Under the pieces are notes generated by a model. The model made no database searches. It was not told the DNA's origin and saw only the letters and a program-made list of their open reading frames with translations. Both the position numbers and the translations under genes were made by a program. From positions 155,119 to 219,118 of the forward strand of contig JACKCR010000009.1 in NCBI GenBank assembly GCA_020633975.1: a stretch of DNA of 64,000 nt. Direction: 5' to 3'. Positions 9,950 to 36,970 of the stretch are shown here, piece by piece (position 1 is the first letter of the stretch; every line of letters starts with the position of its first letter). The stretch comes from Candidatus Eiseniibacteriota bacterium. GTDB taxonomy: Bacteria > Eisenbacteria > RBG-16-71-46 > CAIMUX01.

Positions 9950-10083
9950 CCGGGACTCGGTGTAGACGCTCGAGGCGAGCGGTCGTTGGATGCGGATCGA
10001 CACGGGGGTGCTTCCGCCTTCCAAGCAGTGCGCCGACCCTTCGGGGACGGGCTCGCAGCGGAACCCTTTGGGAGAAACAGACG

Positions 10084-10794: not shown

Positions 10795-10904
10795 TGCTGA
10801 TGAGCGCAGAGCGACTCGTCTCCGCCCGGCGGGGACCGGCCGAGAACGATTGCCTTTCCGACGGAGTCTGCTAGAAAGGTCGAGACGGGGCAAAGGAGAA
10901 CAAG

Positions 10905-11489: not shown

Positions 11490-11516
11490 TCCGGTGGGTC
11501 CGAAGGCACCCGAGTG

Positions 11517-11942
11517 TCAGACGGACAGCAGGTAGAGGTGGTACCCGACCAGTCCCAGGAAGAGCAGGAAGAGGCTGGCGGCAGCGTGCCGGGTGTAGGG
11601 GAAGTTCTGGTGCAGTCCGAGCAGGAAGAGCCCTGATCCCGCCAGCCCGAGCTTCACGACGAGGAAGAGCCTCGGATCGATCTGGATGAGGACATCCATG
11701 ATCGGGTTGAGTTCGGTCCCGCCTCTCGCCAGATGGCCGAGGGTGAGCCACGCGTCGAGGATGTGGAACACGAAGGTCAGGGCGAGGATGATGGCCAGCT
11801 TCGTCCGGATCCGGTCCACGTAGTAGAACCCAGGATCCTCCTCCCGCCGGCGTGAACGACGTCGTCCGCCCACCCAAGAGTAGCGGCTCAACAAAGGCGT
11901 CGGCTTCCGCCTCCGATCAACTCCACGACGACGTCCGTCCAT
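11517..11942 (-). CDS. Small polytopic membrane protein (DUF5658-like) with an Arg-rich N-terminus
   Basis: Three to four hydrophobic helices and a DAWLTLGHLARGGTELNP motif. Convergent with LemA. Confidence 0.5.
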   Translation of the reverse strand: MDGRRRGVDRRRKPTPLLSRYSWVGGRRRSRRREEDPGFYYVDRIRTKLAIILALTFVFHILDAWLTLGHLARGGTELNPIMDVLIQIDPRLFLVVKLGLAGSGLFLLGLHQNFPYTRHAAASLFLLFLGLVGYHLYLLSV

Positions 11943-12152
11943 GATGTAGGAATTCTATCACCAAAACATCCAGTCGGAACGCGTTGTGACGTGAGTCATT
12001 TCGCCGGAAACGGCGGACTCCTGCCCATTTGAGCATCGAGCGGATGTGTCGTTCGGCACTGCCGCCCCAACCGACCGGTTCGGGTCCGGCGGTTGCGGCA
12101 CGGCCGACGAGTCCGGAGTCGTGACGATCCCCGCGCGTCGACTTGGATCCAC

Positions 12153-21804: not shown

Positions 21805-22896
21805 CTATAGGAACCGGTAGGTGAAGCCGATGGCCATCGTCTGCTTGAACTGACCAGCCTTCCGCGTCGCGACCCGCAGGTCACTCGCGTTCTTCACCGT
21901 ACCGTCCTCATTGAAGACTGGTACGACGGAGTTGTCGTACTTGTCGTAGAGCCAACGAAGGTAGAGGTTCACCGAAACGATCTTCGTGATCTGCGTCGAG
22001 AAGATGTTCTCCCAGTCGAGATCTGCAACCGTCGTGAAGTCCTTGATGTCCGGATCGATTCCCGACGTAGCGAAGTTCGAAGCATCGAGCAGCATGTCGA
22101 AGTCGTCCGACGCGGAATAGAAGACCGGCTGGAAGGCCGTGAACTTCGAGGTGTAGGTCACCTTGTCTTCCAGGATCTTGTTCTTGTAGTCCAAGACGAA
22201 CTCGAGACCACCGTCGTTGGTGAACTCGCTATCGGTCGTCGTGTCGGTCGGGAACGGATTCTCCGACGTCGGCTGCACCACGAACTGCTTGCGCAAGTTC
22301 TGGCGGAAGGAGAAACCGAGACGGGTGATCAGGTTGAGGTCCTCTTCGTCGAGGAACACCTTCGCCACACCCGCGGTCTCCTTGAACTTCATCGGGTTGA
22401 TCGCGAGCGTTCGGCCGGCCGGATCCGTCGCGTCCTGGAACTGGCTCTCGAACCGGCCCGCGAGGAACGGGTCGACGACGCCACCCAGCGTGAAGCGGAA
22501 GATCGTTTCGTAGTCGATGAGGTCCGTCGACTTCTCCGGACGATCCCAAGCACGTTCGCCGTTCGGGCCGACCGACTGCTGGTGCGTCTGGCCGTAGGCG
22601 AGCTTCAGCGTGTTGTTCCAGTTGATCTTCGGCTTGATCTGATTCTCGGCGGTTCCGTTGACGATCGCCGTCCAGACGATCGAGCCCTTGTCTCCACCCG
22701 ACCAGTTGTCGCTGTACGAACTCTGGGTGAGTTGAAGACCGCCCTCGAGCGTCGGATACCACTTGCCGACTTCGAGTACCTTCTTCTCATCACCATCGCC
22801 ACCATCCTGGGCGAGGGCCAGATCGACTCCGGCGGCCGTGAGCAGAAGGCCGCACGCCGAAAGGCCGAGCCACCAAGTCCTGTTTGACGTGGTCAA
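21805..22896 (-). CDS. Outer-membrane beta-barrel protein (putative porin, DUF3078-like)
   Basis: Signal peptide (LLLTAAGVDLALAQD), alternating amphipathic beta-strand pattern, and a C-terminal aromatic residue (GFTYRFL) of the kind the BAM machinery recognises. Confidence 0.55.
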   Translation of the reverse strand: MTTSNRTWWLGLSACGLLLTAAGVDLALAQDGGDGDEKKVLEVGKWYPTLEGGLQLTQSSYSDNWSGGDKGSIVWTAIVNGTAENQIKPKINWNNTLKLAYGQTHQQSVGPNGERAWDRPEKSTDLIDYETIFRFTLGGVVDPFLAGRFESQFQDATDPAGRTLAINPMKFKETAGVAKVFLDEEDLNLITRLGFSFRQNLRKQFVVQPTSENPFPTDTTTDSEFTNDGGLEFVLDYKNKILEDKVTYTSKFTAFQPVFYSASDDFDMLLDASNFATSGIDPDIKDFTTVADLDWENIFSTQITKIVSVNLYLRWLYDKYDNSVVPVFNEDGTVKNASDLRVATRKAGQFKQTMAIGFTYRFL

Positions 22897-23136: not shown

Positions 23137-24699
23137 CTACGTGATGGGCTTTCGAGCGCAGACGAGCCAGCCGTGGACAGACTCCCCGACTTCCATCCGC
23201 AGCACCTCGGGGAGGACGGTCGGATTCTCGAAGTTGGAGCCACGTAATGCTTTGTGGATATGAGACTTGGCGTGAACGTAGCGCCCGTGGAACTGGAGCC
23301 GATAAGGCGGTTCGTCACCGGAACGGCCCGGCTCGTCTTCGGACGCGGAGTCACGGACGGCATCCAGCGACTCGACCGTGAAGACGAACCAACCGCCCGG
23401 ACGCAGCGCGTGCCAGGCAGCCTGGGTCACCTGGGATAGGTCTCCGAAGTAGCAGAGGGTATCGGCCGAAACGACCGCGTCGTAGGCAACCGGGTGCTCC
23501 TCGAGAAAGGCGGTGAGTTCCGCCACCACGAGTTCGTCGTACCCCCGGCCCTCCGCCTTCTTCAGCATGCCCGCCGATAGGTCGACTCCGACGAGTCGAC
23601 GGCAGAGCGGGGTCAGATACGGACCGCAGAGCCCCGTCCCGCATCCCGCGTCGAGGATCGTGTCGAGCCTACGAAAGGGCTCCGCGCTGGTGGCATCGGA
23701 TGGATCCGGCGCGTCGTCACGGTTCGCCGCGCTGCCACGGTCCGGTGCGTCGGGTCCGTTCCAACCGAGTGAACGCTGCAGCATCGCACCGACCTTCTCC
23801 GGCGCCTGGTACTGCAGCTCCGCGAGGTGTTCGTCGAAGCTGTCTGCGTGCTCGTCGAAGTGTGTGCTGACGAACTCATCGGAAGCGCGGACGACAGACT
23901 CCGTGATCCCGAACGCGGCAGCCAAGTGCTGGGCCGTGGCGTTGTCAGGATCGTACGCAAGCCACTCTCGGACGGCGGCGCGAGCGTCGTCTTCCTGGCC
24001 CGCTCTCCACAAAGCTTGGCTGAGGTTCTGGTAGTCGCGCGCGGCGTCCGGCTTGAGTTCGATTGCTTTGCGGAAGCAGACGGCGGCTTGCGCATGGTGT
24101 CCCGCTCGACGGAACACGTTTCCGAGGTTCTGGTGCGCGTCGGCGTGATCGGGAGAGATCCGGATCGCGTTCCGGAACGCATCCCCGGCCTCGTTCCATC
24201 GGCCGGAGCGCTTGTAGAGCGTTCCTAGATTGTTCCACGCATCTGCCGATGCATCGGGCGCGAGCGTGATCGCCTGCTCGAACGCAGTGCGCGCCTCGTC
24301 CGACCGCCCTCGCTCCATGAGAATCCGGCCGAGGTTGTTGTGCATGTCCGCGTGCTCCGGATGGAGCGCGATTGCGGACTGGATCCTCTCGATCGCCTCA
24401 TCGCTCCGGCCGAGCTGGTGAGTGACGACGCCGAGGAAGTGCAACGCATCTGGCTGGTCGGGTACGGCCTCGAGCACCTTGCCGTAGATGTACTCCGCCT
24501 CGGCGAGTCGCCCTGCGCGGTGATGACGGATGCCCATCTCCACCGCTTCCTGGACGGAGATCTCACGGACCTGCACGGATCCCGTCGGGTCCTCGTGACG
24601 ATCGGTCGACCCTTCCGCGTCATCGCCACCATTCGGTGATTCGGTAGGGCGTTCGCGTTCTGGGTCTGTCTCGGGTGTCTGCTCCGGAGAGTCCGTCAT
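23137..24699 (-). CDS. TPR-repeat protein fused to a class I SAM-dependent methyltransferase domain
   Basis: About 7 TPR repeats (e.g. AEAEYIYGKVLEAVPDQPDALHFLGVV, AIALHPEHADMHNNLGRI), then MTase motif I LDAGCGTGLCG and a post-I acidic VGVDLS. Confidence 0.8.
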   Translation of the reverse strand: MTDSPEQTPETDPERERPTESPNGGDDAEGSTDRHEDPTGSVQVREISVQEAVEMGIRHHRAGRLAEAEYIYGKVLEAVPDQPDALHFLGVVTHQLGRSDEAIERIQSAIALHPEHADMHNNLGRILMERGRSDEARTAFEQAITLAPDASADAWNNLGTLYKRSGRWNEAGDAFRNAIRISPDHADAHQNLGNVFRRAGHHAQAAVCFRKAIELKPDAARDYQNLSQALWRAGQEDDARAAVREWLAYDPDNATAQHLAAAFGITESVVRASDEFVSTHFDEHADSFDEHLAELQYQAPEKVGAMLQRSLGWNGPDAPDRGSAANRDDAPDPSDATSAEPFRRLDTILDAGCGTGLCGPYLTPLCRRLVGVDLSAGMLKKAEGRGYDELVVAELTAFLEEHPVAYDAVVSADTLCYFGDLSQVTQAAWHALRPGGWFVFTVESLDAVRDSASEDEPGRSGDEPPYRLQFHGRYVHAKSHIHKALRGSNFENPTVLPEVLRMEVGESVHGWLVCARKPIT

Positions 24700-24793: not shown

Positions 24794-25363
24794 TCAGACT
24801 TCGCGGAACTGCGTCCAGAGCTTGGTGAACCGCCGCGCATAGACCTTGTCGTACGCGCGCTCGATCTCCGGGAAGTAGCGCTCGCAGCGTTCCTTCAACT
24901 GCACCTGCTCGCGCTCGATTTCCTGCCGCGAGTAGCTCGTCGCGGAGATGAGGTAGCAGATCCGATCCGCGCGACGCTGGAGTTCCTTCGCCTTCCGCTC
25001 GTCATCCAGCTCCCAGGAGAACCGGAGGTCGTACTGATACGGCCAGTCGAACTCGGGAAGCGATCCGGTACTCCTCGCCTCGAGCTCTGCTCTGAGATCC
25101 TGCCACTCGGCGTCCGACAGTTCGATCCCCTTGCGACTCGATGGGTCAGGCGAGGTCCACTCAGGAGCGACCCGCTCTCGACTGAGGGGGGTGTCCGATC
25201 CTGTCGTCGCGGCAGCGGACGAGTGGTCGTGGCCGTGTCCGCCCGTTGGGTCTTCCGTCGGCTTTCCGACGATCGCGCCACATCGGCACCAGAAGGGGAT
25301 GCCGAACTCGAACAGGTAGAGCGGATAGGGTTCTGTGCAGACTGGGCAAGTGATGATGCGCAT
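24794..25363 (-). CDS. Hypothetical protein with an N-terminal CPxC...CRCG zinc ribbon
   Basis: The internal ATG at 25363 gives MRIITCPVCTEPYP...WCRCGAIVG. Track ORF runs 24794..25510. Upstream of, and co-directional with, the TPR-MTase. Confidence 0.45.
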   Translation of the reverse strand: MRIITCPVCTEPYPLYLFEFGIPFWCRCGAIVGKPTEDPTGGHGHDHSSAAATTGSDTPLSRERVAPEWTSPDPSSRKGIELSDAEWQDLRAELEARSTGSLPEFDWPYQYDLRFSWELDDERKAKELQRRADRICYLISATSYSRQEIEREQVQLKERCERYFPEIERAYDKVYARRFTKLWTQFREV

Positions 25364-25634
25364 TCGCGTCCTACTCCCTTCGAAGCGCCTCGTGCTGGCC
25401 GGCCTTCCTGGCGCGTGCCTGCTAGGGTTTTCGGACGGAAGTCGTCGGACTGAACCCGGTCGGTCTCTCTTTTTGAGGGTTGTGGATCGGAAAATGTTCC
25501 GAAGCGGCAAGTGGGGACCGGCAACCGAATGTCAGTGCTGCATTTGCGAGGAAATGCCTTCCCTTTCGGGCCGTAGGGGCAAGGCATTGCCAACAGACGA
25601 CTTAGCGGGGCAGGTACATTTTCCGATCCACTGC

Positions 25635-27203
25635 CTACCGGAGACGAAGGAGTTTGGCGGAGCCTGGGCCGGACATCTCGCGGACGAAGTAGACGCCAGC
25701 GGGGAGCAGCCGACTCGCGTCATCCCGACCATCCCAGTCAGCCGTCCAGACACCCGCTTCACCTCGCGCGGCGGCAAGGCTCCGCACCGATCGGCCCATC
25801 GCGTCGGTGACGACCAGGACAGGCGATGTCGACGACCGCTCTGCGGCCCAGTCGCCCACAGGCGTCGACCATTGGACGGTGATGACCGCGTCGCGTCCGA
25901 GCGCTGACGGGTTCGGGGCGATCGAGATGGTGGTGGGGAGCGGGGAGGGAACTGAAGGCTCCACATCGGAGGCCTGCGGTTGGATCACGTTCCACGTTTC
26001 CAAGCCATCGACCCGACCCGTGCCGAGGAGTCCGTAGTAGGGGGCGTTCCCGGGTAGTTGGTAGATGTCGGCGACGCCATCCTGGATCAGCGAATCGGTC
26101 ACTGCTTTCGGCAGGGTCGGTGTCGCTCCGATGATGACCGCGGCTTGGCCGGAGACGAACGGTGCGGCGAACGAGGAGCCGGCGCCGAGGGCCCAGCCGT
26201 TGTCCAAGAACGGCGCGCGGATTCCGACGCCCGGGGCGGAAAGGCTGATCGTCGAGTGGAAGCTCGCGAAGTCCGCTTTGACGTCCAGAGTGTCGAGCGC
26301 AGCCACTCCGTGAACTCCTGGAAGAGAGGCGGGGAAGAAGGGTGGTTGCTCGATTCCCTGGTTTCCTCCTGCGGCCACGACTACGACGCCTGCGTCGATC
26401 GCGTAGCCGACACCACGGCCGAGTGCCTCGCACGGAGTCGTCAGCCCGAGGCTCAGGTTGATGACGTCGGCGCCCTGAGCGATGGCGTACTGGATGCCCT
26501 TGACGACGTCGAAGGTTCGGCCGACTCCCTCGTCGTCCACGACGCGAACGGGCAGGATGCGCGCGCCGGGCGCCGCGAGGTGAGCGATTCCCGCGACCAT
26601 CGTTCCGTGGCCTGCGCCCTCGTCTACCATCGAGTCGTTGTCATCGTCGATCCCGTTTCCGGTATCCGACGGGTCGTTGTCTTCGTCCACGAAGTCGTAG
26701 CCGGGGAGCACGCGACCGAGGAGGGCGGGGTGTGTGCCGTTCACACCGGTATCCAGGACCGCGATGATCGTCCCCGATCCGGTGGCGTGCTGGTGCAGCT
26801 CGTTCAGGTGGATCCGGGAATAGACGTCTTGGTCCTCGTAGTCCTCGATGGTGCCGCCGACGAGACCGACGACCATGGCGCGAAGGGCTTCGGGCGTGGT
26901 GTTGAGGTAGGACGGCTCGGCCCACACGATGCGCGGGTCTAGTGCCATCTCGTCGATGAGCAGCCAGACGTTGCCGGTGTTCACGGCGAGGAGGTGGAGT
27001 GGTTCGGCCGCATCCTCGGAGGTAGTGCCGTAGTCGTTGTTGATGTCCTCGATGAGAACGCCGGGCGCGAGTTCACACTGGATGTGGTCGTCTTCGTAGT
27101 CGAGGAATGCGCTCGCCGTGGTCGGGAACTCGAGCCACGCGACGATCGCCAGCAGAATCGTGAGCGCGACGACACGCGCAACTCTCGGAGGCCTGGTCAT
27201 CAT
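25635..27203 (-). CDS. Secreted S8 (subtilisin-family) serine peptidase with a Por/FlgD-like C-terminal sorting/Ig domain
   Basis: Catalytic triad contexts VLDTGV (Asp), HGTMVAGI (His), GSSFAAPFVSG (Ser). Signal peptide MMTRPPRVARVVALTILLAIVAWL. C-terminus WDGRDDASRLLPAGVYFVRE...AKLLRLR matches the T9SS-CTD/FlgD-Ig pattern. The ATG at 27203 overlaps the CHAT stop (ATGA). Confidence 0.85.
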   Translation of the reverse strand: MMTRPPRVARVVALTILLAIVAWLEFPTTASAFLDYEDDHIQCELAPGVLIEDINNDYGTTSEDAAEPLHLLAVNTGNVWLLIDEMALDPRIVWAEPSYLNTTPEALRAMVVGLVGGTIEDYEDQDVYSRIHLNELHQHATGSGTIIAVLDTGVNGTHPALLGRVLPGYDFVDEDNDPSDTGNGIDDDNDSMVDEGAGHGTMVAGIAHLAAPGARILPVRVVDDEGVGRTFDVVKGIQYAIAQGADVINLSLGLTTPCEALGRGVGYAIDAGVVVVAAGGNQGIEQPPFFPASLPGVHGVAALDTLDVKADFASFHSTISLSAPGVGIRAPFLDNGWALGAGSSFAAPFVSGQAAVIIGATPTLPKAVTDSLIQDGVADIYQLPGNAPYYGLLGTGRVDGLETWNVIQPQASDVEPSVPSPLPTTISIAPNPSALGRDAVITVQWSTPVGDWAAERSSTSPVLVVTDAMGRSVRSLAAARGEAGVWTADWDGRDDASRLLPAGVYFVREMSGPGSAKLLRLR

Positions 27204-30200
27204 TGGTCGACTCCTCCCAAAACTGCGAACGAGGCCCAGTGCCAAGGATGTGGGCGTGTCCGCATGAGTCGGCGCATGGCTGCTCCCAACGCTTCTGGAG
27301 CAGTCAGACCCGATGTTAGCTCTTCATAGAAGCAGTCCATGAGCTCCACGGTCGGCTCGTCCTGGATCGGCCAGAGCGAGGCGATGACGGTAGAGGCTCC
27401 TGCTTGGAGGAACCCTCGTGCGAGGCCGATCCACTCGTCCCCGGCCGGCGCAGAACCGCGGGCCGAGGAGCAGGCCGTGAGGACCACTGTCGATGAAGGC
27501 AGTTGCAAGTGTAACAGGTCGTGCACGTAGAGCGGCCCGTCGGCGAGCTCGATGAACGAATAAGCCGGGTTGTCGCGGCGCAGGGAGCCGTGGGCTGCCA
27601 GGTGGACGATTCCGGCCCCGGGCGTGTGGTTGAATATGTCCGATCGATCCGGATTGAGGTGGGCCATCGTCTTCGGCACCCGAAGGTGCCGAACCACATG
27701 CTGGACTTCGGTTTCGACCGCAGGCAGTTGGGAGGAAAGGACACCGGCCACGAACGCCGACCGTACCTCCCGGACCGGTACGGCCCGAGGGAGCTGCCCG
27801 AAGACGCGAGCGCTCGGGGAGACTGCGATATCCTGGGACTCGATCAGGTACCCGTCGGGGCCTCGGAGCGCGTGCAACGGGACCCGGTGGACCGGGCCAT
27901 GGGGCGAGACGATCCAGCCGCGCACCTCGGGAAGTCCCAGTCGAACGATCGGTTCCCAGAGGAGCGAGTAGAGCTCGGAGAGGATCGCATCGGTCGAACG
28001 GCCGAGGAGCATCATGGGATCGATCGTCTTGGGCTGGCCGATTCCGTTCGTGGCCGACCCAGTCTGAGATACCGACGCTGCCGCTGTGGCCGCACTGGTA
28101 GTGGTGGCCGTGGGCTCGGACAGGGCGACGGCGGTGGACGCGCCCCGGCTGCGAAGACTGGTCATCGCCGCGGCGCCCCACTGGAAGTCGAGACGGTCGC
28201 ACAGTGCGCGGACCCGCGTGCCGACGTCGTCCGCTAGACGGCACCAGCTGGTACCGGCAGCGGTGACGATCACAGCGAGCGCGAAGCTCGGGCCGACGTG
28301 ATAGCTCACCCATCCCCAGCCGTCCGGAAGCCGACCACGTACGAGTTCGAGCGGGGATGGTTCCGCGTGCGCATCCGGCCCCTGCGCAGCCGCGCGTTCG
28401 GCGCGTCGGCCGGGAAGTCGCTCCTCGAAGCGACGAAGGAGTCGGCTGTAGGCCACCTCTGCTTCCGCGAGACGGCCACGAAGCGTCTCTGCCTGCGTTC
28501 GCTCACCGACCGTACCGAGCTCGAGTCGCGACAGTCGCGTGTGGAGCCAGGAGAGGCGGTGCCTGGCGCGCTCGAGTTCCTCGTCTCCTTCTGGAGACTT
28601 CGCTTCTGCGCGGGAGGCGTTTCCGTCGGCGGTGAGGTACTGATTCGGATTCCGGAGTCTGTCCCAGAGGCTCTGCGCCCGGCTTCGCTCCATCGCGTCG
28701 AAGAGTCGATCGACCGACGGAGTGCGCCTGGTGAGTTCGAGACCGATGAGTCGGTCGTAGAGGTGCGTCTTGTCTTGGAGGAACGAGAGTTTCGAGTCCT
28801 CCGTGGGGATGCGCACACGGAGGTCTTCCAGACACGCCAAGGCTTCGCGATACGCGCGTTCTGCGTCCGCCTTCTTGCCGCTCTCGTCGAGAACTTCACC
28901 CAACATCTCGAGCAGGCGATAGCTCTGGAGCGGATAGAGGTTGCGCGGCAACTTCTCGAGCATGCGCCGGAGCATGCCGGCCGGGCTCTTCGCGCGACGG
29001 CGTTTCACCCGAAGCCGGGCGAGCAGAACGGACGACGCGGCTTCCCACCTGGGAAGGCCGAGCTTTCGGAAGCGACGGATCGCTTCGGTGACGTGCTGCT
29101 CGGACTCGCTGTAGCGCTGCCTCAGGAAGAGTGCCTCGGCCCAGATGAGCCGGATGTAGGCCGAGCGGGCTGCGTTCTCGTCCTTGTCGAACAGCCTACG
29201 CGCACGGCGGATCTGCCGCAGCGCGGGACGGATCTCTCCCATCGCGAGCGCCGTGATCGCCGTCTGACACTGGGCGAGGGCTTCGTCGTAGGTGAGTCCG
29301 ATCCCGGCGAAAACCTCTGCCGCTTCGGACGCGAGCTCGTTCGCCTCTCGGTGGAGGTTCAGCTGGTAATAGACCTCCGCTCGGTTGAGCAGGCACGCGC
29401 CGAGGAACGCTGGGTGGTCCGTCTTTCGGAAGTAGTCCGTTGCTTGCGTCAGGCGTTGGAGGGCGCGATCGAACTCGCTTCGTAGGCAGTGGACGTCACC
29501 CGCATTCATCCGAATCTGTGCGAGCAGGAGTTCGAGCTCGCGCTCCGTGCACTCGGACTCGAGTTCCTCGTAGAGTTCGAGCGCCTCTTCATCACGATCG
29601 ACATGACCGAGGACGACCGCGCGGTTGACCTCGACGGACAAGACGGTTTCGTCACGTTCCGCGATCCGGTCGAGGATGGCGAGGCCCTTGTCGTATGCCT
29701 CGAGCGCTTCGTTGTAGCGATCCCGTTGGAAACGGGCGTTGCCGAGGTTGATCCCCAGCTTCGCGAGGTAGAGGTCGTCGCCTGCGTCTTCGAGCAGACT
29801 TCGCGCTTCGGCCGCGAGCTCTTCGACGAGGTCGTGCCGTCCGAGAAGTGTGGCGACGTGGATCCGCCCGACCAGGAGCTGTCCCAGTGCGGCCGATTCC
29901 TTCGCCGTCCGCCAGGCAGCCGTAGCGAGGGCGTACTCGTCCTCGGCTTCGTTCATCCGTCCGGAGTAGAGGAGTGCTTCGGCGAGGATCCTGTGTCCCC
30001 AACCGATGGCGCGAGGCTCATCGATGAGGTCGGCAAGCTCGACGGCGCGACGCCCGATGTTGCGGGCCTCGCGTGCGTCGGTGCTGTAGTACCGGAGGGC
30101 TTCGTCTCTCAGGTCGCGCACCCATCGCCACGCTTCACCGGGAAGACCGTCAGTGACGAGGCGGGCAAGCTCCGCCGAGGGGACCTGTCGGATCCGCGCG

Positions 30201-30223
30201 ATGTCGAGAGGCGCGGCGGTCAC
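27200..30223 (-). CDS. TPR-repeat CHAT-domain (caspase-like) protease, 1007 aa, no signal peptide
   Basis: N-terminal two-thirds are TPR-like helical repeats. C-terminal CHAT domain has an intact His/Cys dyad (VHLAAHGSLRRDNP and VLTACSSARG). Start overlaps the upstream stop (30223/30227). Confidence 0.85.
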   Translation of the reverse strand: MTAAPLDIARIRQVPSAELARLVTDGLPGEAWRWVRDLRDEALRYYSTDAREARNIGRRAVELADLIDEPRAIGWGHRILAEALLYSGRMNEAEDEYALATAAWRTAKESAALGQLLVGRIHVATLLGRHDLVEELAAEARSLLEDAGDDLYLAKLGINLGNARFQRDRYNEALEAYDKGLAILDRIAERDETVLSVEVNRAVVLGHVDRDEEALELYEELESECTERELELLLAQIRMNAGDVHCLRSEFDRALQRLTQATDYFRKTDHPAFLGACLLNRAEVYYQLNLHREANELASEAAEVFAGIGLTYDEALAQCQTAITALAMGEIRPALRQIRRARRLFDKDENAARSAYIRLIWAEALFLRQRYSESEQHVTEAIRRFRKLGLPRWEAASSVLLARLRVKRRRAKSPAGMLRRMLEKLPRNLYPLQSYRLLEMLGEVLDESGKKADAERAYREALACLEDLRVRIPTEDSKLSFLQDKTHLYDRLIGLELTRRTPSVDRLFDAMERSRAQSLWDRLRNPNQYLTADGNASRAEAKSPEGDEELERARHRLSWLHTRLSRLELGTVGERTQAETLRGRLAEAEVAYSRLLRRFEERLPGRRAERAAAQGPDAHAEPSPLELVRGRLPDGWGWVSYHVGPSFALAVIVTAAGTSWCRLADDVGTRVRALCDRLDFQWGAAAMTSLRSRGASTAVALSEPTATTTSAATAAASVSQTGSATNGIGQPKTIDPMMLLGRSTDAILSELYSLLWEPIVRLGLPEVRGWIVSPHGPVHRVPLHALRGPDGYLIESQDIAVSPSARVFGQLPRAVPVREVRSAFVAGVLSSQLPAVETEVQHVVRHLRVPKTMAHLNPDRSDIFNHTPGAGIVHLAAHGSLRRDNPAYSFIELADGPLYVHDLLHLQLPSSTVVLTACSSARGSAPAGDEWIGLARGFLQAGASTVIASLWPIQDEPTVELMDCFYEELTSGLTAPEALGAAMRRLMRTRPHPWHWASFAVLGGVDQ

Positions 30224-30226
30224 CCG

Positions 30227-30898
30227 CTACCCCTCTTCGTGCGAGGGAATCCGGAAGGGTACGAGCCTCAGGGAATCCTTCCCCATGTCCAGCTCGATCC
30301 GAATCTCACCGTCTTCGACATCCGTGAAGTGGAACTGGGCACCTGGGTCGAGATGCGTGGACGTCGTGCCTCGCTCCGTGGTGGCGCGGGCTTCGATCTC
30401 GGCGTCGAGCAGATCCAGGTGGAGCGGGACGAACTGCCCCATGACGGAGTGTCCCCGCTCGCTGCGATCGATCTGGAGGTGAACGTCACCGAGCTCGGAA
30501 GAGAAGTGGAGTTGCCGAGGCTGGAACGCCGCAGAACCACGAATGCCCTGCATGGCGGCTCCGGCGAACGTATCGCCGACGAGCTGGGCCTCGATGATCC
30601 GGACCGCGTCCCGGAGGGCGTCCTTCGCACGCTCCAGCAGGCTCGGAGCCGGAGCGAGACCACGCTCGAGTTCCATGATCCGGGCGACGGCGGCGTCGAT
30701 CCAAGGACGGGGTGTCGCAACCTCGGCTACGTCCTGGATCTGAGCCAGGAGGGAACGAACCTGGTTCAGGGCAACGGGATCGTCCGCCAACTCTTCGCGT
30801 AGGGAGTTCAGGACGTCGCGGAGGTCCTGCTCGCTACCGGTACGGGCCGCGCGTGCTAGGGCGGCTGCAAAGATCTTGTCGGCGTCGTTCGTGGTCAT
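30227..30898 (-). CDS. Hypothetical 223-aa acidic cytoplasmic protein (helical N-half, beta-rich C-half, no Cys, no TM); candidate sigma-factor partner
   Basis: Internal ATG at 30898 (MTTNDADKIF...) chosen because the longer track ORF (to 31222) would overlap the ECF sigma gene by 160 nt. Translationally coupled to the CHAT gene. Confidence 0.5.
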   Translation of the reverse strand: MTTNDADKIFAAALARAARTGSEQDLRDVLNSLREELADDPVALNQVRSLLAQIQDVAEVATPRPWIDAAVARIMELERGLAPAPSLLERAKDALRDAVRIIEAQLVGDTFAGAAMQGIRGSAAFQPRQLHFSSELGDVHLQIDRSERGHSVMGQFVPLHLDLLDAEIEARATTERGTTSTHLDPGAQFHFTDVEDGEIRIELDMGKDSLRLVPFRIPSHEEG

Positions 30899-31058
30899 GG
30901 CACATCTCCGTGATCCTGCAAACAACCGTTCGGCATGGCGCCTGGTCTGCCACTGCAGGGGGCCCCGAATTCGATCAGTTGTCGCTCCGGACGCCGTCCT
31001 GATACGCACGGGTTCGGATTGGCGTGCCACTCGGCGGCTCTCCGCGGGATAGCCCCCA

Positions 31059-31691
31059 TCACTCGCCGCCCTCCCATCCACCTTCCTCGAGGAAGGTGCG
31101 GAGCTTGTCGAGACATCTGGCGCGGGTCGGCCCGATGCTTCCGATCGGAATCCCGTCGCGGCGCGAGATGGTTTCATAGTCCGGCGGAGGATCCTCGAAG
31201 AAGAGCGAGTGCAACAGCACACGGCACCGACCGGTCAGGTGTTCGACGGCCTCCCGCACCTGTTGGATTTCGATGAGCCGACTGCGCTCCGAATCCGGGA
31301 GCTCGAGATCTGCGACGTGCGTCTCGAGGTCCACATCCGGTACGGTGAGATCACGAGTTCGCACCCGGATCCTGTTGATCGCCTGACGATGCGCGATTCC
31401 CACGATCCAGGAGACGAGCCGCTCGGGCTCGCGGAGTTTCGGGAGCTGTTGGTGGATCGCGACGATCGAGGACTGAAACGCCTCTTCGACGTCTTCCTCC
31501 GGCAGCTGCACACGCAGGATCGTGGCGTAGATCAGATTGGCGTAACGCTCGACGAACTCCGACCACGCGGCCTCCTCGTGCGCGAGACAACGGGCCACGA
31601 GTAGCTCGGGTCTTGGATTCTGCACGCTCCCTGGGTTCGTGGACTTGGATTCTGCACGACGGGAGCCGATCGAACGCGGGCGTCGAGGCAT
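31059..31691 (-). CDS. ECF-type (sigma-70 family) RNA polymerase sigma factor
   Basis: Region 2 (YANLIYATILRV, DVEEAFQSSIVAIHQQL, WIVGIAHRQAINRIR) and region 4 (LTGRCRVLLHSLFFEDPPPDYETISRRDGIPIGSIGPTRARCLDKLR). Confidence 0.8.
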   Translation of the reverse strand: MPRRPRSIGSRRAESKSTNPGSVQNPRPELLVARCLAHEEAAWSEFVERYANLIYATILRVQLPEEDVEEAFQSSIVAIHQQLPKLREPERLVSWIVGIAHRQAINRIRVRTRDLTVPDVDLETHVADLELPDSERSRLIEIQQVREAVEHLTGRCRVLLHSLFFEDPPPDYETISRRDGIPIGSIGPTRARCLDKLRTFLEEGGWEGGE

Positions 31692-31902
31692 GACGAAGAG
31701 AGTAGCACAGCGAGAGGCGTGTTGACTGTTCAGGAGACGCCCGGTCGGGCCGCAAATTGATTTGGGGCTGGCTTCGGGCGCAGCGTATATTCCGAATGAC
31801 CAGCCCGAACATTCGTGAGGGGTCCGCGGAGAGGGGTATCTCCCTCCTTCGGACGCGGCAGACGACGGCTCGGGCTCAACGGGCTAGAAGGGACCTCTAG
31901 GA

Positions 31903-33381
31903 ATGGTGATGAGACCCGGAATCGGCATGCATCAGACGATGAGTCTGAGCCAGGTTCTGACTCCGCAGATGCGGATGAACCTGGAGCTGATCCAGGCGCC
32001 GATCCTAGAAGCCGTCGAAGCCCTCGAGCAGACCGTCATGGAGAACCCCTGGCTCGAGCGGAACGAGGACCAAACGGATCCTCGCTTCGTTCGTGACGCC
32101 GACCGGGAAGTCGCGCAGACGCCGTCGACCCCGACCGAGCAACGCGAGTTCGACGAAGCCGAAGCCTGGTTCGACGCGCCGGCCACTCCTTGGACCCACG
32201 AAGGGTTCCCGGCGGACGAAGCGCAGGGAGCGATCGCAGTCAACGTTCCCACGCCCTATGAACAGCTCAACGAACAGGTCGCGGATCTGGACGTGCGTCG
32301 TCCCGTCATGGAGATGGTACGTCTCCTCATCTGCAACCTGGACGAGCACGGCTACCTCGCGTGTCCGGAAGATGAGCTGAAGGAGTTCCTCGGGATCGAG
32401 ACGCCGATCCAGGAGAAGACGTTCGAAGAGGGGCTGGAGGCGATCCGTCGCGAGATGGAACCCGCCGGTCTCGGCGCCCGGGATCAGGCGCATTGCTTCC
32501 TTCTTCAGCTCGAGCGCCAAGGCAAGGGCAAGACCCTCGCCGCGCGCATGGTGAAGGAAGGCGTCCTCGGAATGATGAAGCCGAGGAACCTCAACACGGT
32601 TGCAAAGAAGCTCGGCGTCAAAGAGTCCGAACTCCGGGAAGCGTTGGAAGATCTCCGTCGTCTCTATGCGCATCCACTTTCGCTTCTCGATCAGACGACC
32701 GAACCGACGCGGTATCCGGACCTGATCGTCGAGAAGATCGACGACGAGTGGATCGTCAACCTGAGCCATCCGCTCGCGGGTCGGTATCGCTTCCGCGACA
32801 CAAAGGTTCCTCGGAAGAAGGCTCTGGTTGCCGAGATGAACGGCGATCTGGACAAAGAAGATCCCGCCGCGGTTCTCGCCCGTCTTCGCGAGATGAGGCA
32901 GAACGCGCGCATGATGGTCAACGCGACCGAGTATCGGGACCGAACGCTCTACGAAATCGGTCGTCACCTCGTCGCGGAGCAGACCGAGTTCCTCGAGAAG
33001 GGCGAAGAAGCCCTCCGCCCGCTCCTCCAGAAGGAGCTTGCCGAGCGGCTCGGTATGAACGAAGCCACGATTTCACGAATCCTCCGGGACAAGCACATGC
33101 TCACACCGCGTGGGCTGATGCCGATGAGTTCATTCTTCTCCCGTTCGATCACTGGCGACGACGGTGAGAAGGTCGCGAACAAAACCGTCATGGATGCGCT
33201 GAAGAAGCTCATCGACGAGGAAGAGGATTCGGAGAAGCCGTGGAGCGATCAGGAGATCTCCGGCCTTCTCAAGGAGCGGGGATTCCCGATCTCCCGCCGG
33301 ACGGTGACGAAGTACCGTCTGAACCTCGGCATCGGATCCGCGAGTGACCGCAAGGCCATGGCGCGGATGCGCCAGGGTTGA
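31903..33381 (+). CDS. rpoN: RNA polymerase sigma-54 factor
   Basis: Gln/Leu-rich region I (LSQVLTPQMRMNLELIQAPILE), core-binding region, HTH, and C-terminal RpoN box ISRRTVTKYR. Start could be 31903, 31927 or 31939. Confidence 0.9.
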   Translation: MVMRPGIGMHQTMSLSQVLTPQMRMNLELIQAPILEAVEALEQTVMENPWLERNEDQTDPRFVRDADREVAQTPSTPTEQREFDEAEAWFDAPATPWTHEGFPADEAQGAIAVNVPTPYEQLNEQVADLDVRRPVMEMVRLLICNLDEHGYLACPEDELKEFLGIETPIQEKTFEEGLEAIRREMEPAGLGARDQAHCFLLQLERQGKGKTLAARMVKEGVLGMMKPRNLNTVAKKLGVKESELREALEDLRRLYAHPLSLLDQTTEPTRYPDLIVEKIDDEWIVNLSHPLAGRYRFRDTKVPRKKALVAEMNGDLDKEDPAAVLARLREMRQNARMMVNATEYRDRTLYEIGRHLVAEQTEFLEKGEEALRPLLQKELAERLGMNEATISRILRDKHMLTPRGLMPMSSFFSRSITGDDGEKVANKTVMDALKKLIDEEEDSEKPWSDQEISGLLKERGFPISRRTVTKYRLNLGIGSASDRKAMARMRQG

Positions 33382-33486
33382 CGCCTCTACCGACTACGAC
33401 CGAGTCGACACGCTAGAGCCCTATCTTTCCCAGCACCGGTGGTTGGGTGTCGAACCGTCCCTGCGTGTGACCCCGACTTCCTCTGA

Positions 33487-33526
33487 CCAGGACGCCAGCC
33501 ACCCTCAGTAACAAGGGTCGCGTCCT
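33487..33526. terminator. Imperfect stem-loop (CAGGACGC...GCGTCCTG, 8-bp outer stem with an inner ACCCT/AGGGT stem) about 105 nt after the rpoN stop
   Basis: Read from the sequence. No U-tract. Weak call. Confidence 0.3.
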
Positions 33527-33597: not shown

Positions 33598-34887
33598 ATG
33601 CGCGAAATGAACCGGTTCTCGAGGCACCGCCAGGCCGCGGCAGTCTGTACGATCACGTTGGTCGCAGCGGCGATCGGGTTTGGAGGGTGTGCATCGGGAG
33701 GCGGACCCCAAGGTGGGCCTCCGCACAAGGGCGGCCCGCCGCCCGGCGCTCCGGCCGCACATCACGACACCCGTTCGGATAGTCGTGTAATCGCCGTTCA
33801 CATGGCGTCGAATCAGCCGTCCCAAGTGATCCCGGTCATCCGTCGAGAGACGCGTGACGTGCTGCGTCTCTCCTTCGACGTGGCCGGCGATCGGAGAGAG
33901 TTCTACTCGGCGCACTTTCATCCGGCGACGAGAGATTGGGAGCTGTCCACCGGTATCGAGGACGGCATCCTCCCTCCCCCGGACGACATCACCGAGTACG
34001 AAGCCTCGACCGATCTGGACTTTCCCTACGTGCAGTACACGTACGAGTTCCCGAATCCGAGAGTGGACTTCTATCGAAGCGGGAACTTCGTCCTTCAAGT
34101 GTTGGACGATCGGGGCGGCATCGTTCTCGAGAAGCCGTTCTACGTCAGTGACGAGATGGTCGACATCGATATCGACGCGAAGAGCACGTCGCTCATCACC
34201 GACCGACCGGACGAGCTGATCCCGGAAGCGCGGATTCGCGTTCCAACCGATCCGTGGTTCTCCCCGGCCGACTGTTCCGTCCGGTTCTTCAAGAACGGTT
34301 GGACCGACGAGTACTTCCACGTCGACATCTCCCGGCCCGACGGGGATGACCACGTCTACGAAGCGCCGTCGGTGTTCCGACTCACCATTCCCGTCTACAG
34401 CGCGGACCTTGCTGGCAACTCGGGAATCCGTCGACGGGATGCGATCACCATTCCCGAGACGGTTTCGCTGCTCCCCGACGACATGCGTTTCTGGGGAGAC
34501 GACTACCGGTTCGCATCGCCGCTCCCGAGGCGGGCCACCCCTCACGATGCGTTCACTCGGTACGTGATGGCCGACTTCGCGGTCCAGAACGGACCCCGCA
34601 ACGATCCACCGTACCTCGTCGGGACGTTCAGTGACTGGGAGCCGTATCCCGAGAACCGGCTCACTTGGAACGACGAGACGCGGGCCTACGAGATCCATGT
34701 GCCGCTCCGCGAAGAGCAGTTCTTCTACACCTACGTCTGGACCGATCCGAACACCGTGCGTCCGCAGTCCAAGTTCGAAGGCCCGGGCGAGGTCGTATTC
34801 ACAGGTGTGGTCTACGCGAACGATCGCCGCTATCCGACGGAACGGATTCTCGCCGTGAAGAGTCAGACTCTTCCCGACCAGAACTAG
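33598..34887 (+). CDS. Secreted hypothetical protein (429 aa)
   Basis: Signal peptide MNRFSRHRQAAAVCTITLVAAAIGFGGCASG (possible lipobox). Good codon bias. No family recognised. Its stop lies 4 nt from the convergent TonB-receptor stop. Confidence 0.55.
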   Translation: MREMNRFSRHRQAAAVCTITLVAAAIGFGGCASGGGPQGGPPHKGGPPPGAPAAHHDTRSDSRVIAVHMASNQPSQVIPVIRRETRDVLRLSFDVAGDRREFYSAHFHPATRDWELSTGIEDGILPPPDDITEYEASTDLDFPYVQYTYEFPNPRVDFYRSGNFVLQVLDDRGGIVLEKPFYVSDEMVDIDIDAKSTSLITDRPDELIPEARIRVPTDPWFSPADCSVRFFKNGWTDEYFHVDISRPDGDDHVYEAPSVFRLTIPVYSADLAGNSGIRRRDAITIPETVSLLPDDMRFWGDDYRFASPLPRRATPHDAFTRYVMADFAVQNGPRNDPPYLVGTFSDWEPYPENRLTWNDETRAYEIHVPLREEQFFYTYVWTDPNTVRPQSKFEGPGEVVFTGVVYANDRRYPTERILAVKSQTLPDQN

Positions 34888-34891
34888 CCGA

Positions 34892-36970
34892 CTACATCGT
34901 GCCGCGAATGAAGACCAAGATGGATCGTCGCGGCTGCGGTGTCGTTGGGAGCGAGAAGAAGAACTCGTCGAACTTCGAGATCTTCGAGTAGGACCTGTCG
35001 AACAGGTTCTGCGCGTCGATGCCGACACTCAGCCGCCAACTTCCCGTGGGGATCTGCTGCTCCAGGAGGGCATCGGCCGTCCAGGTGCCGTCGATCGTCT
35101 TCCCGGCGAGCGCCGTGTTCGCTTCGTTCGAGGTGACGTCGTCGAACCCGCGGGCAACGAGGCGCAAGTGAGTTCCTGCCCTATGCCAGTCGGCCCCGAG
35201 TTGGTAGAGGTGACGCGGCATGTGGTTCAGCGGCACCTCGCCGTCCGAGGTCGAGGCCGCGGTCTGGGTTCCGTCGGTCAACGTGTAGTGTCCGCTGAGC
35301 GACCACTCACGCCAGACTTCGTACTCTCCTGACACGTGGAAGCCCTGGATCGAGGATTCTGCGACGTTCGCGTTGGTCTGGTAGACCACGTTGACCCCGT
35401 CGATCTCGATCGGTCCGCGGAACTCGATCCGCCACAGATCTTCGGCTCGTGTGCGGAAGCCAGCCAAGGCCAAGTGGGACCGGTCCGATGGGAACCAGTC
35501 GATCGAGGCGTCGAACGTTTCCGAAGACTCCGGCTGAAGGTCCGGGTTCGGAAGGTGGACGAACTCGCCCTCTGCGATCACGCCCCATCGCTCGTACATC
35601 TTGTGAGACGACGGCGCGAGGTACGCGGTGCTCCAGTTCGCACGCATGCGGATGCCGTCATGTGGGTGGAGCATCGCTCCGAATCGCGGATTCCAGCGGT
35701 GAGGGAACCTCGAGTCGTCGTCGATCCGGATTCCCGCAGTCACACCGAGCCACGACGCTGGGCTGAGCTCTGCCTGGGAGAAGGCGCCGACGTTTCGGTA
35801 GTGGATGTCGTACGAACCTAGGGGGTAGTCGAGGTCGGTCTTGGGAATCGACTCGAACCACTCGGACTCGGCTCCACTGATCCAGGTGAGCCATTCGTTC
35901 TCCCAACCGACGTCGGTGGCGAGGCGTGTCGAGTGCCCCTTCCAGAAGAACGAGTGGGACTCGAACTCCTGCGATCCGGAGAAGTCGTAGGCGTACGTCG
36001 AGGTCGGTTCGAGCTCGGTCCGCGAGTAGGCGACGGTGCTTCGGACGCGCCAAGGTCCGTCATTCTGGAGACTCCATCCCAGTCGCCAGTAGTCGTTCTC
36101 GGTGTCCCACGTAGACGCACCCGAGTAGTCGTAGAGGGTCGGTTGGAAACCGATGCCGTTGTTCCGGCTACCGAAGAGACGCAGGTATGACGCGTCGAAC
36201 GCACCCGCCTCGAGCCGAGCATGGAAGCTCTGGCTCTCGAGCTTCGGGTCGACGTCGAACGTGCCGAACGTCTTCGGATACGCGTTGGCCAGATCCTCCT
36301 GCGAGGACGTGAAGAAGCTCGCGGTGATGCTGAGCGATGCGCGATCTCCCAGTTCGATGCCATGCATGGCCTGGGCTTCATATGTCCGGTTGGTGCCCGT
36401 ACCGAACCACGCGCCCGCGGGCATGTCCTTGCTCGGTTCCATCGTCACGACGTTGACGACACCCGCAATCGCGTCGGCCCCGTAGAGGGATGCCGCCGCG
36501 CCGTAGCTCATCTCGACTTGCTTCACGGAGATGAGGGGGATGTTGCGAAGGAACGTGAACGGCTCTCCCGTGGGAGCGGAGATCTCTTCTCCGTCGAGTA
36601 GGAAGAGCATCTTGGAGTTCGCATCCACGCCCCGCACCAGGACTTCCGTTGCGGCGTGTTCGCTGCTCGTCATCTCGACGAGGTAGACACCGGGGAGGTC
36701 ACGCAGGACGTCGAGGAGATCCCGGTAGCCACGTTCGAGGATCTGATCGCGCGACACGACGACGGCCGACACGGAGTTTTCGAGGAGCGGCTTCTCCGTC
36801 TTGCTCACGGAGATCACAGGAATGTTGAGGATCTCTTCGAGCGACAGATCGAGGAGATCGGTCGTCTCCTTCGCCGCGGCGACGCCGGACACAGCGCTGA
36901 GCAATCCCAGCAACGCAGCTGGACCGAGCCATGTCGATACTTCGGAGAGAAACCTGTCGATAGACAACAT
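34892..36970 (-). CDS. TonB-dependent outer-membrane receptor
   Basis: N-terminal signal, TonB-box/plug region (DLSLEEILNIPVISVSKTEK...AVVVSRDQILERGYRDLLDVLRDLPGVYL) and a 22-strand barrel of about 690 aa. Confidence 0.82.
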   Translation of the reverse strand: MLSIDRFLSEVSTWLGPAALLGLLSAVSGVAAAKETTDLLDLSLEEILNIPVISVSKTEKPLLENSVSAVVVSRDQILERGYRDLLDVLRDLPGVYLVEMTSSEHAATEVLVRGVDANSKMLFLLDGEEISAPTGEPFTFLRNIPLISVKQVEMSYGAAASLYGADAIAGVVNVVTMEPSKDMPAGAWFGTGTNRTYEAQAMHGIELGDRASLSITASFFTSSQEDLANAYPKTFGTFDVDPKLESQSFHARLEAGAFDASYLRLFGSRNNGIGFQPTLYDYSGASTWDTENDYWRLGWSLQNDGPWRVRSTVAYSRTELEPTSTYAYDFSGSQEFESHSFFWKGHSTRLATDVGWENEWLTWISGAESEWFESIPKTDLDYPLGSYDIHYRNVGAFSQAELSPASWLGVTAGIRIDDDSRFPHRWNPRFGAMLHPHDGIRMRANWSTAYLAPSSHKMYERWGVIAEGEFVHLPNPDLQPESSETFDASIDWFPSDRSHLALAGFRTRAEDLWRIEFRGPIEIDGVNVVYQTNANVAESSIQGFHVSGEYEVWREWSLSGHYTLTDGTQTAASTSDGEVPLNHMPRHLYQLGADWHRAGTHLRLVARGFDDVTSNEANTALAGKTIDGTWTADALLEQQIPTGSWRLSVGIDAQNLFDRSYSKISKFDEFFFSLPTTPQPRRSILVFIRGTM

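Follow-up and report, generated by a model that had tools for sequence, protein, structure and literature searches.

A conserved ECF sigma factor cassette with a TPR-CHAT caspase-like protease in Candidatus Eisenbacteria and its candidate soluble anti-sigma factor

Introduction

How a sigma factor of the extracytoplasmic function (ECF) type could be controlled by a caspase-like protease encoded next to it is the question raised by a stretch of 64,000 nucleotides (nt) from the uncultured phylum Candidatus Eisenbacteria, hereafter the window. A cassette of four genes, all on the minus strand between positions 25635 and 31691, encodes an ECF sigma factor, an acidic protein referred to as X, a TPR-CHAT protein and a subtilase of the S8 family. 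A preliminary description of this locus noted X where a membrane-spanning anti-sigma factor might have stood, knew of no characterised ECF pathway that makes use of a CHAT protease, and proposed a regulated cytoplasmic proteolysis linked to an extracellular protease. The answer developed here is that the four genes behave as a unit conserved across phyla, in which X would be the anti-sigma factor and the CHAT protein a predicted protease acting upon it.

The group ECF54, whose original description is reportedly that of Huang et al. in 2015, provides the closest gene context. This group, from Actinobacteria, is listed among those devoid of an anti-sigma factor or a clear regulator (PMC7826278), and its conserved context comprises a CHAT protein, a subtilase and a "carboxypeptidase"; that proteolysis controls the group has already been suggested (PMC8999054, with reference to PMC7826278 and to Huang et al.). 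The central hypothesis of proteolysis is already in the literature in this general form, and the system is not categorically new. The premise that CHAT proteases are missing from the characterised ECF pathways is also out of date, since both the Csx29-Csx30-CASP-sigma system (PMC10028731) and the DdvA-DdvS system (PMC11506125) exist. In the former, the ECF-like CASP-sigma is bound and inhibited by the N-terminal domain of Csx30, and the TPR-CHAT protease Csx29 lifts this inhibition by cleaving Csx30 (PMC10028731). In Myxococcus xanthus, DdvA is a transmembrane anti-sigma factor of the zinc-binding (ZAS) type which carries a periplasmic TPR-CHAT module and controls the ECF sigma factor DdvS (PMC11506125). 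A cascade of SAVED-CHAT and PCaspase, finally, cleaves a putative sigma factor (bioRxiv 10.1101/2023.06.23.546230).

The proteins of the cassette

The four consecutive minus-strand genes were found as described, and their family assignments were borne out by profile hidden Markov models, Sigma70_r2, CHAT (PF12770), TPR_12 and Peptidase_S8 being all matched. The sigma factor matches Sigma70_r2 of Pfam (E = 9e-9, 35.4 bits, cut-off 24) and the sigma70-ECF model TIGR02937 of NCBIfam (57.8 bits, cut-off 42.9) over residues 42-200 and, with about 200 residues and an ECF model above its cut-off, it has the characters of an ECF (group IV) sigma factor. Region 2 is preceded by an N-terminal tail, some 40 residues long, in which Arg, Pro and Ser abound, and region 4, IPIGSIGPTRARCLDKLR, is nearly identical in the cassette sigma factors of other lineages (loci L038 and L040). 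Identity of the window sigma factor amounts to 29-35% with the sigma factors of the CHAT cassettes of Actinomycetota and to 41-42% with those of loci L038, L039 and L040.

The CHAT domain (E = 8e-52, 176.8 bits) covers residues 747-1003 (27215-27985) of a protein whose TPR region matches TPR_12 with E = 3e-19. Its motifs HLAAHG and LTACSS occur at residues 874 and 915, respectively, and every one of 38 aligned orthologues has H874, H878, G879 and C918. No transmembrane segment was seen in a sequence scan, so that a cytoplasmic CHAT protein with an intact dyad, as first described, is upheld. The protein is accordingly predicted to be a caspase-like peptidase of clan CD with a conserved His/Cys dyad. 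Its score with the Csx29 model NF041237, 37.1 bits, is far under the cut-off of 300 and denotes a likeness at the level of the domain only.

The subtilase has a hydrophobic, signal-like N-terminus (VARVVALTILLAIVAWLEF), followed by a pro-region, the S8 domain (PF00082, E = 1.5e-35, 123.4 bits, residues 142-368) and a domain resembling FlgD_ig (PF13860, E = 2.5e-7, 31 bits, cut-off 27, residues 454-507). Its translation contains AVLDTG, HGTMVAG and GSSFAAP, presumably the counterparts of the Asp/His/Ser triad consensus of subtilases. The C-terminus had been described as T9SS/FlgD-like; the FlgD part stands, whereas no match at E<=0.01 was obtained with the sorting-domain models of the type IX secretion system (T9SS; Por_Secre_tail, TIGR04183), and the protein does not pass as a T9SS cargo by this measure. 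The subtilase is predicted to be secreted or exported, and a meeting with a cytoplasmic sigma factor is unlikely because it carries a signal peptide.

At the junctions of the genes, the coupling by ATGA overlaps that had been claimed for the last three genes holds for CHAT and S8, which share a true overlap at 27200-27203 preceded by the Shine-Dalgarno sequence GGAGGAG, but not for X and CHAT, where the stop codon TAG of X (30229-30227) is followed by cgg and then by the GTG at 30223, a gap of 3 nt. The sigma and X genes are separated by 160 nt.

Conservation of the cassette

A word-indexed search with X retrieved four X clusters only; these carry little weight by themselves, because the entire gene surroundings are common to their contigs (rpoN, sigma, X, CHAT, S8, an open reading frame (ORF) of about 180 residues and the TPR-methyltransferase). 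The CHAT protein, in turn, is represented by about 40 full-length orthologous clusters with 43-100% identity. The GTDB species genomes were pattern-scanned with the CHAT alignment, ORFs were called and scored with phmmer, and 18 Eisenbacteria loci from 16 genomes were obtained. The order sigma-X-CHAT-S8 on one strand is found in 15 of these 18 loci, two further loci are interrupted by contig ends, and two genomes each carry two paralogous cassettes. In the remaining arrangement of note, L013 (~7040-7120), X-CHAT with its promoter element lies directly behind a tRNA gene, with no adjacent sigma or S8 gene, which is a possible rearrangement or integration point. Most of the Eisenbacteria loci lack rpoN, the T9SS-plug gene and DUF3078 as neighbours.

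Within the cassette, 97-217 nt separate sigma from X, mostly -4 to +25 nt separate X from CHAT, and -4 to +210 nt separate CHAT from S8, X-CHAT being the tightest pair. X diverges fastest, S8 comes next, and sigma and CHAT are the slowest.

Beyond the Eisenbacteria, thirteen loci of Actinomycetota were recovered through similarity of the CHAT domain only; ten of them contain a match to the sigma profile (1e-17 to 1e-40), eight an X-like protein (1e-7 to 1e-13) and six an S8 protease; the gene order is S8-sigma-X-CHAT, or else sigma-X and CHAT converge. L038 and L040, two unrelated long contigs whose sigma factors are about 41% identical to that of the window, contain sigma, X (205 and 184 residues, respectively), CHAT and S8. 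In L035 and L037, distant CHAT homologues (25-30% identity) are neighbours of a gene for sigma or zf-HC2, and in L036 an upstream ORF of 209 residues displays H-x3-C-x2-C by eye and gives no score against the X profile. The four components occur in L035 in the order sigma-CHAT-X-S8; this cassette lies directly after a gene for an oligopeptide-binding protein (SBP_bac_5) and an ORF resembling an ABC permease (830-2602), and its own subtilase is a giant protein of more than 2000 residues with S8 and cadherin/Big_9 domains (6857-12158).

The conservation of the sigma-X-CHAT-S8 neighbourhood, a check named beforehand, is thus strong across relatives and phyla. That it reflects mere synteny was considered and rejected, the cassette occurring likewise in other phyla and at loci whose flanking genes are unrelated. 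Because the linkage survives changes of order, orientation and phylum, there is strong evidence that the cassette is a functional unit.

Protein X, a candidate anti-sigma factor

The X of the window has an isoelectric point of 4.81, no Cys and no hydrophobic segment, in agreement with the Cys-free protein without transmembrane segment that had been announced, and a hypothetical protein with 100% identity to it is encoded in a Candidatus Eisenbacteria metagenome-assembled genome. A profile built from the four close X sequences was searched against 1.84 billion representatives, and 92 clusters were found, nearly all of 180-245 residues. The counts that follow are based on an alignment of 56 of the 92 cluster representatives.

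The N-terminal consensus of the family is HLxxGCxxCxxR; the zinc motif H-x3-4-C-x2-C occurs in 37 of the 56 sequences and CxxC in 40, and two members reach Pfam zf-HC2 at E<=0.01. When the family profile was compared with the sequences of the Protein Data Bank (PDB), the matches to its positions 3-104 were anti-sigma domains, i.e., those of ChrR (2q1z_B, the top match among solved structures, E = 1.1e-4), RsiW (5wuq_C, E = 3.4e-4) and RslA (3hug_B, E = 0.039) and, weakly, the N-terminal domain of DdvA (8rlz_A, E = 1.1). Homology of the N-terminal helical region of X to solved anti-sigma domains is found, therefore, at the level of the family. With its 0 Cys, the window X itself does not display the H-x3-C-x2-C signature of ZAS proteins. 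The C-terminal half matches CarboxypepD_reg in 11 of the 56 members, and also NOMO2 repeats.

The AlphaFold2 model of X (m2a5678869551), calculated from the alignment of 56 rows, is a confident one, with a mean predicted local distance difference test (pLDDT) of 85. Five helices (residues 3-20, 23-36, 41-56, 64-81 and 87-97) are followed by a β-strand (residues 100-109) corresponding to the conserved LVxDS motif, by an exposed loop with a pLDDT of about 66 which is flanked by strands with pLDDT of 96-98, and by the remainder of a β-sandwich (residues 128-217, pLDDT 94-98). R120, located in this loop, is invariant in all 56 sequences, Gly occurs at position -2 in 50 of them, and position +1 is occupied by Gly, Ser or Ala. 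X-like proteins from L035 and from the Actinomycetota loci have kept the loop Arg, and the X sequences of L038 and L040 show GMR[AS]; all these more distant proteins retain the strand, the Arg loop and the sandwich.

[quoted passage not shown] The Arg loop is most likely the point at which a protease would contact X, as a candidate site for cleavage or recognition by CHAT.

Promoter elements

Promoter elements were read from aligned intergenic sequences and then counted. An extended -10 element of the sigma-70 type, TGnTAnnnT, ends 6-9 nt ahead of the start codon of sigma in 14 of the 18 loci and, by reading the sequences, 7 nt ahead of an upstream ATG in two more. No Shine-Dalgarno sequence precedes sigma in the window. 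Because the element ends there 7 nt from the ATG and a Shine-Dalgarno sequence is absent, this arrangement indicates a putative housekeeping promoter of the sigma-70 type and a predicted leaderless sigma mRNA; leaderless initiation may be common in Eisenbacteria.

The search for an ECF-type promoter, suggested for the region upstream of 31691, yielded there the sigma-70-type extended -10 just mentioned, whereas a bipartite element of ECF type, GTATCA-N15-CGAC, is present in the sigma-X spacer. It is the sole exact match in the 64-kb window, for 0.12 expected; a scan of the window allowing one mismatch gave 4 matches for 4.2 expected, i.e., chance level, and a generic scan for sigma-70 promoters and terminators gave nothing useful. 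GTATCA-N15(16)-CGAC occurs in 15 of 16 sigma-X spacers, usually with nnCTG next to it, and a GTATC half-site is found in the spacers of L038 and L040. The element reads as a bipartite ECF-type promoter because its spacing is fixed (15-16 nt) while the spacer sequence is not conserved. A riboswitch or attenuator in the sigma-X spacer was also considered and rejected, with no Rfam match and a fold z-score of -0.43, no better than shuffles; moreover, the partial TCAG/CTGA complementarity around the motif is not preserved in every locus.

Altogether, 27 copies of the element were counted in 19 Eisenbacteria loci and the window. The element precedes X itself in L013, and the extra copies precede another secreted S8 protease (L020), a secreted protein whose tail at the C-terminus is similar (L015) and secreted CarboxypepD_reg-like proteins of about 130 residues (L019, L020 and L021). 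The small proteins (L019, ~5920-6315, plus strand; L020, ~12947-13447, plus strand; L021, ~12535-12939, minus strand) have a signal peptide, a CarboxypepD_reg-like β-sandwich and a Gln/Gly-rich tail, and, to judge from sequence motifs, appear to share the predicted fold class of the C-terminal domain of X.

Since the 160-nt spacer contains the promoter-like element and sigma has an extended -10 of its own, sigma probably forms its own transcription unit, and the single operon of four genes initially proposed is doubtful as far as sigma is concerned. The S8 gene is coupled to CHAT by overlap in the window.

The spacer shared by the ECF sigma gene and the divergent rpoN gene, which encodes sigma-54, measures about 210 nt; a conserved AATTTGCGG block and a CCTGAAC(C/A)GTC block occur in the rpoN-sigma spacers of the window and of L001-L003, L005, L007, L010 and L016. 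The AATTTGCGG and CCTGAAC(C/A)GTC blocks may function as an operator or belong to the rpoN promoter.

Comparison with known systems

With ECF54 the cassette shares a CarboxypepD_reg-type protein, a subtilase and a CHAT protein beside sigma, in the window and in 15 of the 18 Eisenbacteria loci, and four-component loci of Actinomycetota were recovered starting from the CHAT of the window. ECF54 is described as having no recognisable anti-sigma factor (PMC7826278); a standard domain search of the window X gives no match to one, and the X family profile does match anti-sigma domains. The cassette differs from ECF54 in its origin, Candidatus Eisenbacteria instead of Actinobacteria, in its order (sigma-X-CHAT-S8 versus S8-sigma-X-CHAT or convergent), and in the additional N-terminal ZAS-type domain of the Eisenbacteria X, degenerate in the window. 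The 4Fe-4S protein that also defines the ECF54 context (PMC7826278) does not occur among the Pfam-scanned genes between 21805 and 34887, and a Radical_SAM gene stands beside sigma in L040 only. By its gene context, the cassette is a predicted non-actinobacterial member of the ECF54 type, a type known from comparative genomics, with no experimental study, the identity of its sigma factor with the cassette sigma factors of Actinomycetota being only 29-35%.

With Craspase, the Csx29-Csx30 system, the cassette has in common a TPR-CHAT protease gene beside those for a sigma factor of ECF type and for a soluble protein of two domains, the inhibitor in Craspase and a candidate inhibitor here. Unlike Craspase, the cassette has no Cas7-11 and no CRISPR RNA activator, X has no detected similarity to Csx30, and the regulon apparently consists of secreted proteins instead of cas1 and defence genes. 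DdvA/DdvS similarly unites a ZAS-type anti-sigma domain and a TPR-CHAT module in one ECF pathway. In DdvA, however, the modules are fused in a single transmembrane protein and the active site of CHAT is incomplete, whereas X and CHAT of the window are separate, soluble, cytoplasmic and without transmembrane segment, with an invariant dyad. Finally, ChrR, the partner of RpoE, and other soluble ZAS proteins (ECF11 and ECF12; PMC8999054) resemble X as soluble two-domain proteins with an N-terminal anti-sigma domain and a C-terminal β-rich domain. In ChrR and RsrA, the response is a change at the zinc site, either conformational or redox; X of the window, in contrast to ChrR, is devoid of the Cys/His ligands, differs in the fold of its C-terminal part and has a protease linked to it.

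Proposed mechanism and alternative explanations

From the observed gene content, conservation, domain homologies and conserved motifs, a composite model can be drawn, in which CHAT would cleave X, the sigma factor would be freed and the genes preceded by GTATCA-N15-CGAC would be transcribed; a probability of about 0.45 is assigned to it. The sigma factor would be made constitutively, as a leaderless mRNA, from a housekeeping extended -10 promoter, and X would sequester it through its degenerate ZAS-type N-terminal domain. The TPR-CHAT protein would act as a cytoplasmic sensor-protease, its TPR array being triggered by a cytoplasmic cue, and its His/Cys site would cut X, most plausibly after the invariant Arg of the first loop of the sandwich. 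Cut X would be destabilised and sigma released, and the free sigma factor would then transcribe X-CHAT-S8, as both feedback and output, and, in the relatives, further secreted-protein genes. Binding of sigma by X, cleavage of X by CHAT and recognition of the promoter by sigma are the steps that we infer in this scheme. As far as the literature was examined, it adds to the published accounts of ECF54 a probable ZAS origin for the "carboxypeptidase" protein, together with the invariant Arg loop, the pair of promoters and the candidate regulon of secreted proteins. A vague mention of proteases in the vicinity of ECF54 would give way to a specific scheme, with X as a candidate anti-sigma factor, G-[IV]-R-[GSA] as the loop, GTATCA-N15-CGAC as the promoter and secreted proteins as the regulon. 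The regulated cytoplasmic proteolysis linked to an extracellular protease, as originally put forward, is consistent with all these findings, except that the coupling of S8 looks looser, S8 having a promoter of its own in 9 of 13 relatives.

Several observations weigh against this model. Taken on its own, the window X has no match in Pfam, NCBIfam or PADLOC, including no anti-sigma family, the residues of the zinc motif are replaced in it and in its nearest relatives, and fold searches with X returned generic Ig/FN3-like folds only. The X-like proteins of Actinomycetota, L038 and L040 lack a ZAS-like N-terminus, so that sigma binding, if general, would need another part of the protein. R120 could be a structural or docking residue and not the scissile site. 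That GTATCA-N15-CGAC would be recognised by the cassette sigma factor is a reading of position and conservation only. Moreover, a TGnTATAAT-like element precedes S8 in 9 of the 13 relatives in which the CHAT-S8 gap exceeds 40 nt, and because of this promoter S8 does not always depend on the ECF promoter.

X, CHAT and S8 might instead be targets of the sigma factor and nothing else, serving to make, mature or control a secreted protease, while the regulator of sigma would be encoded elsewhere or act at the level of transcription, an explanation that is considered unlikely. ECF anti-sigma factors are normally target and regulator at the same time, which counts against it, as do the homology of X to anti-sigma domains, the survival of the sigma-X-CHAT linkage through changes of order and convergent arrangements across phyla, and the cytoplasmic location of CHAT and X next to an exported S8. 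In its favour, an ECF-type promoter stands before X-CHAT(-S8) and other copies before secreted-protein genes, L013 has X-CHAT and the promoter without an adjacent sigma, and context alone cannot separate regulators from targets (Casas-Pastor et al., PMC7826278). A direct action of CHAT or of the subtilase on sigma, by degrading or maturing it without any anti-sigma factor, X being an adaptor or a substrate-recruiting subunit of CHAT, corresponds to the literature proposal for ECF54 and would suit both the X-like proteins of Actinomycetota, L038 and L040, which have no recognisable anti-sigma domain, and the Arg/Pro/Ser-rich tail of the window sigma factor (~40 residues). It is nevertheless distinctly unlikely, given that the Eisenbacteria X family has clear ZAS features with profile matches to four solved anti-sigma domains, that the sole residue invariant across phyla is in X, and that the signal peptide of S8 makes its contact with a cytoplasmic sigma improbable.

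An anti-phage or abortive-infection module, in which infection would trigger CHAT in a CRISPR-independent relative of Craspase/Csx30/CASP-sigma or of DdvA/DdvS, is very improbable. Defence islands are typically patchy and mobile, whereas the cassette is present in 16 Eisenbacteria genomes, several times beside rpoN, with a divergence consistent with vertical inheritance, as for a core feature of the phylum; the genes directly around it are rpoN and those for a T9SS-plug protein, a TonB receptor, DUF3078 and a methyltransferase, and not cas or defence genes, and the products of the other genes behind the promoter are proteases destined for secretion or small secreted proteins. This possibility is suggested by the fact that, in each of the three characterised cases where a CHAT or similar protease is tied to an ECF sigma factor, the setting is a defence system (PMC10028731, PMC11506125, bioRxiv 10.1101/2023.06.23.546230), and by weak PADLOC domain matches to BovA (CHAT) and to subtilase/IetS; the latter are shared domains only, with no system model, and the Csx29 model reaches 37 bits versus 300.

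Returning to the cleavage of X by CHAT, a bolder and rather doubtful generalisation would have cytoplasmic TPR-caspase-like proteases serve as ECF signal receptors in at least Eisenbacteria, Actinomycetota and others, cleaving a soluble anti-sigma factor at a universal Arg loop, as a CRISPR-independent housekeeping counterpart, and possibly the evolutionary source, of the Craspase-Csx30-sigma system. Should the composite model be confirmed, regulated proteolysis of anti-sigma factors by caspase-like enzymes would be a general mode of bacterial signalling, beyond CRISPR-linked defence, and the cassette would be a first way into the study of how genes are regulated in the Eisenbacteria, an uncultured phylum. 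As a further speculation beyond the generalisation above, imported peptides that the co-encoded secreted subtilase has set free may be what the TPR array senses, which would close a nutrient- or prey-sensing feedback loop; one distant cassette, that of L035, lies directly after an oligopeptide-binding-protein gene.

Gene neighbourhood of the cassette

Table 1. Features of the cassette and of its surroundings in the window
Feature	Position	Strand	Remarks
DUF3078 protein	21805-22896		predicted outer-membrane β-barrel; Pfam scan
TPR-methyltransferase fusion	23137-24699		Pfam scan
238-residue ORF	24794-25510	-	downstream of S8; Cys pairs CPVC...CRCG in the N-terminal part; weak FmdE zinc-finger match, 0.0021 (below cut-off)
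S8 subtilase	25635-27203	-	522 residues; ATG at 27203
TPR-CHAT protein	27200-30223	-	1007 residues; GTG start
CHAT Cys918 codon	27470-27472	-	predicted catalytic dyad
CHAT His878 codon	27590-27592	-	predicted catalytic dyad
X	30227-30898	-	223 residues; acidic, Cys-free; ATG at 30898
X residues 100-217	30248-30601	-	CarboxypepD_reg-like β-sandwich
X loop, residues 110-127	30518-30571	-	exposed; G-[IV]-R-[GSA]; R120 codon 30539-30541
X residues 1-97	30608-30898	-	helical anti-sigma-domain-like region, zinc ligands lost; aligns to the HLxxGCxxC N-termini of relatives
GTATCA-N15-CGAC	30981-31005	-	in the sigma-X spacer; start of X 82 nt downstream; 30976-31005 with aaCTG
ECF (group IV) sigma factor	31059-31691	-	210 residues
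Extended -10, TGnTAnnnT	31699-31707	-	TGCTACTCT; sigma-70 type; ends 7 nt before the sigma ATG
Spacer common to sigma and rpoN	31692-31902		
rpoN	31903-33381	+	sigma-54; divergent from ECF sigma
T9SS_plug_1st protein	33598-34887		Pfam scan

No cas-type genes were seen among the neighbours of the cassette. In the close relatives L001 and L002, rpoN and the T9SS-plug gene are separated by a gene for a hydrophobic protein of 559-563 residues, without any Pfam match. The window lacks this protein, and there the ~1.77 kb of L001 (5784-7552) correspond to about 125 nt (33385-33510), and tblastn gave no match. The 238-residue ORF located downstream of S8, which has 178-187 residues in the relatives, is conserved after the cassette in L001, L002, L010 and L018. 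On the other side, an ORF resembling TonB-dependent receptors is found, together with the T9SS-plug gene, within 33598-36970, and these envelope- and secretion-related surroundings are consistent with a T9SS-bearing organism.

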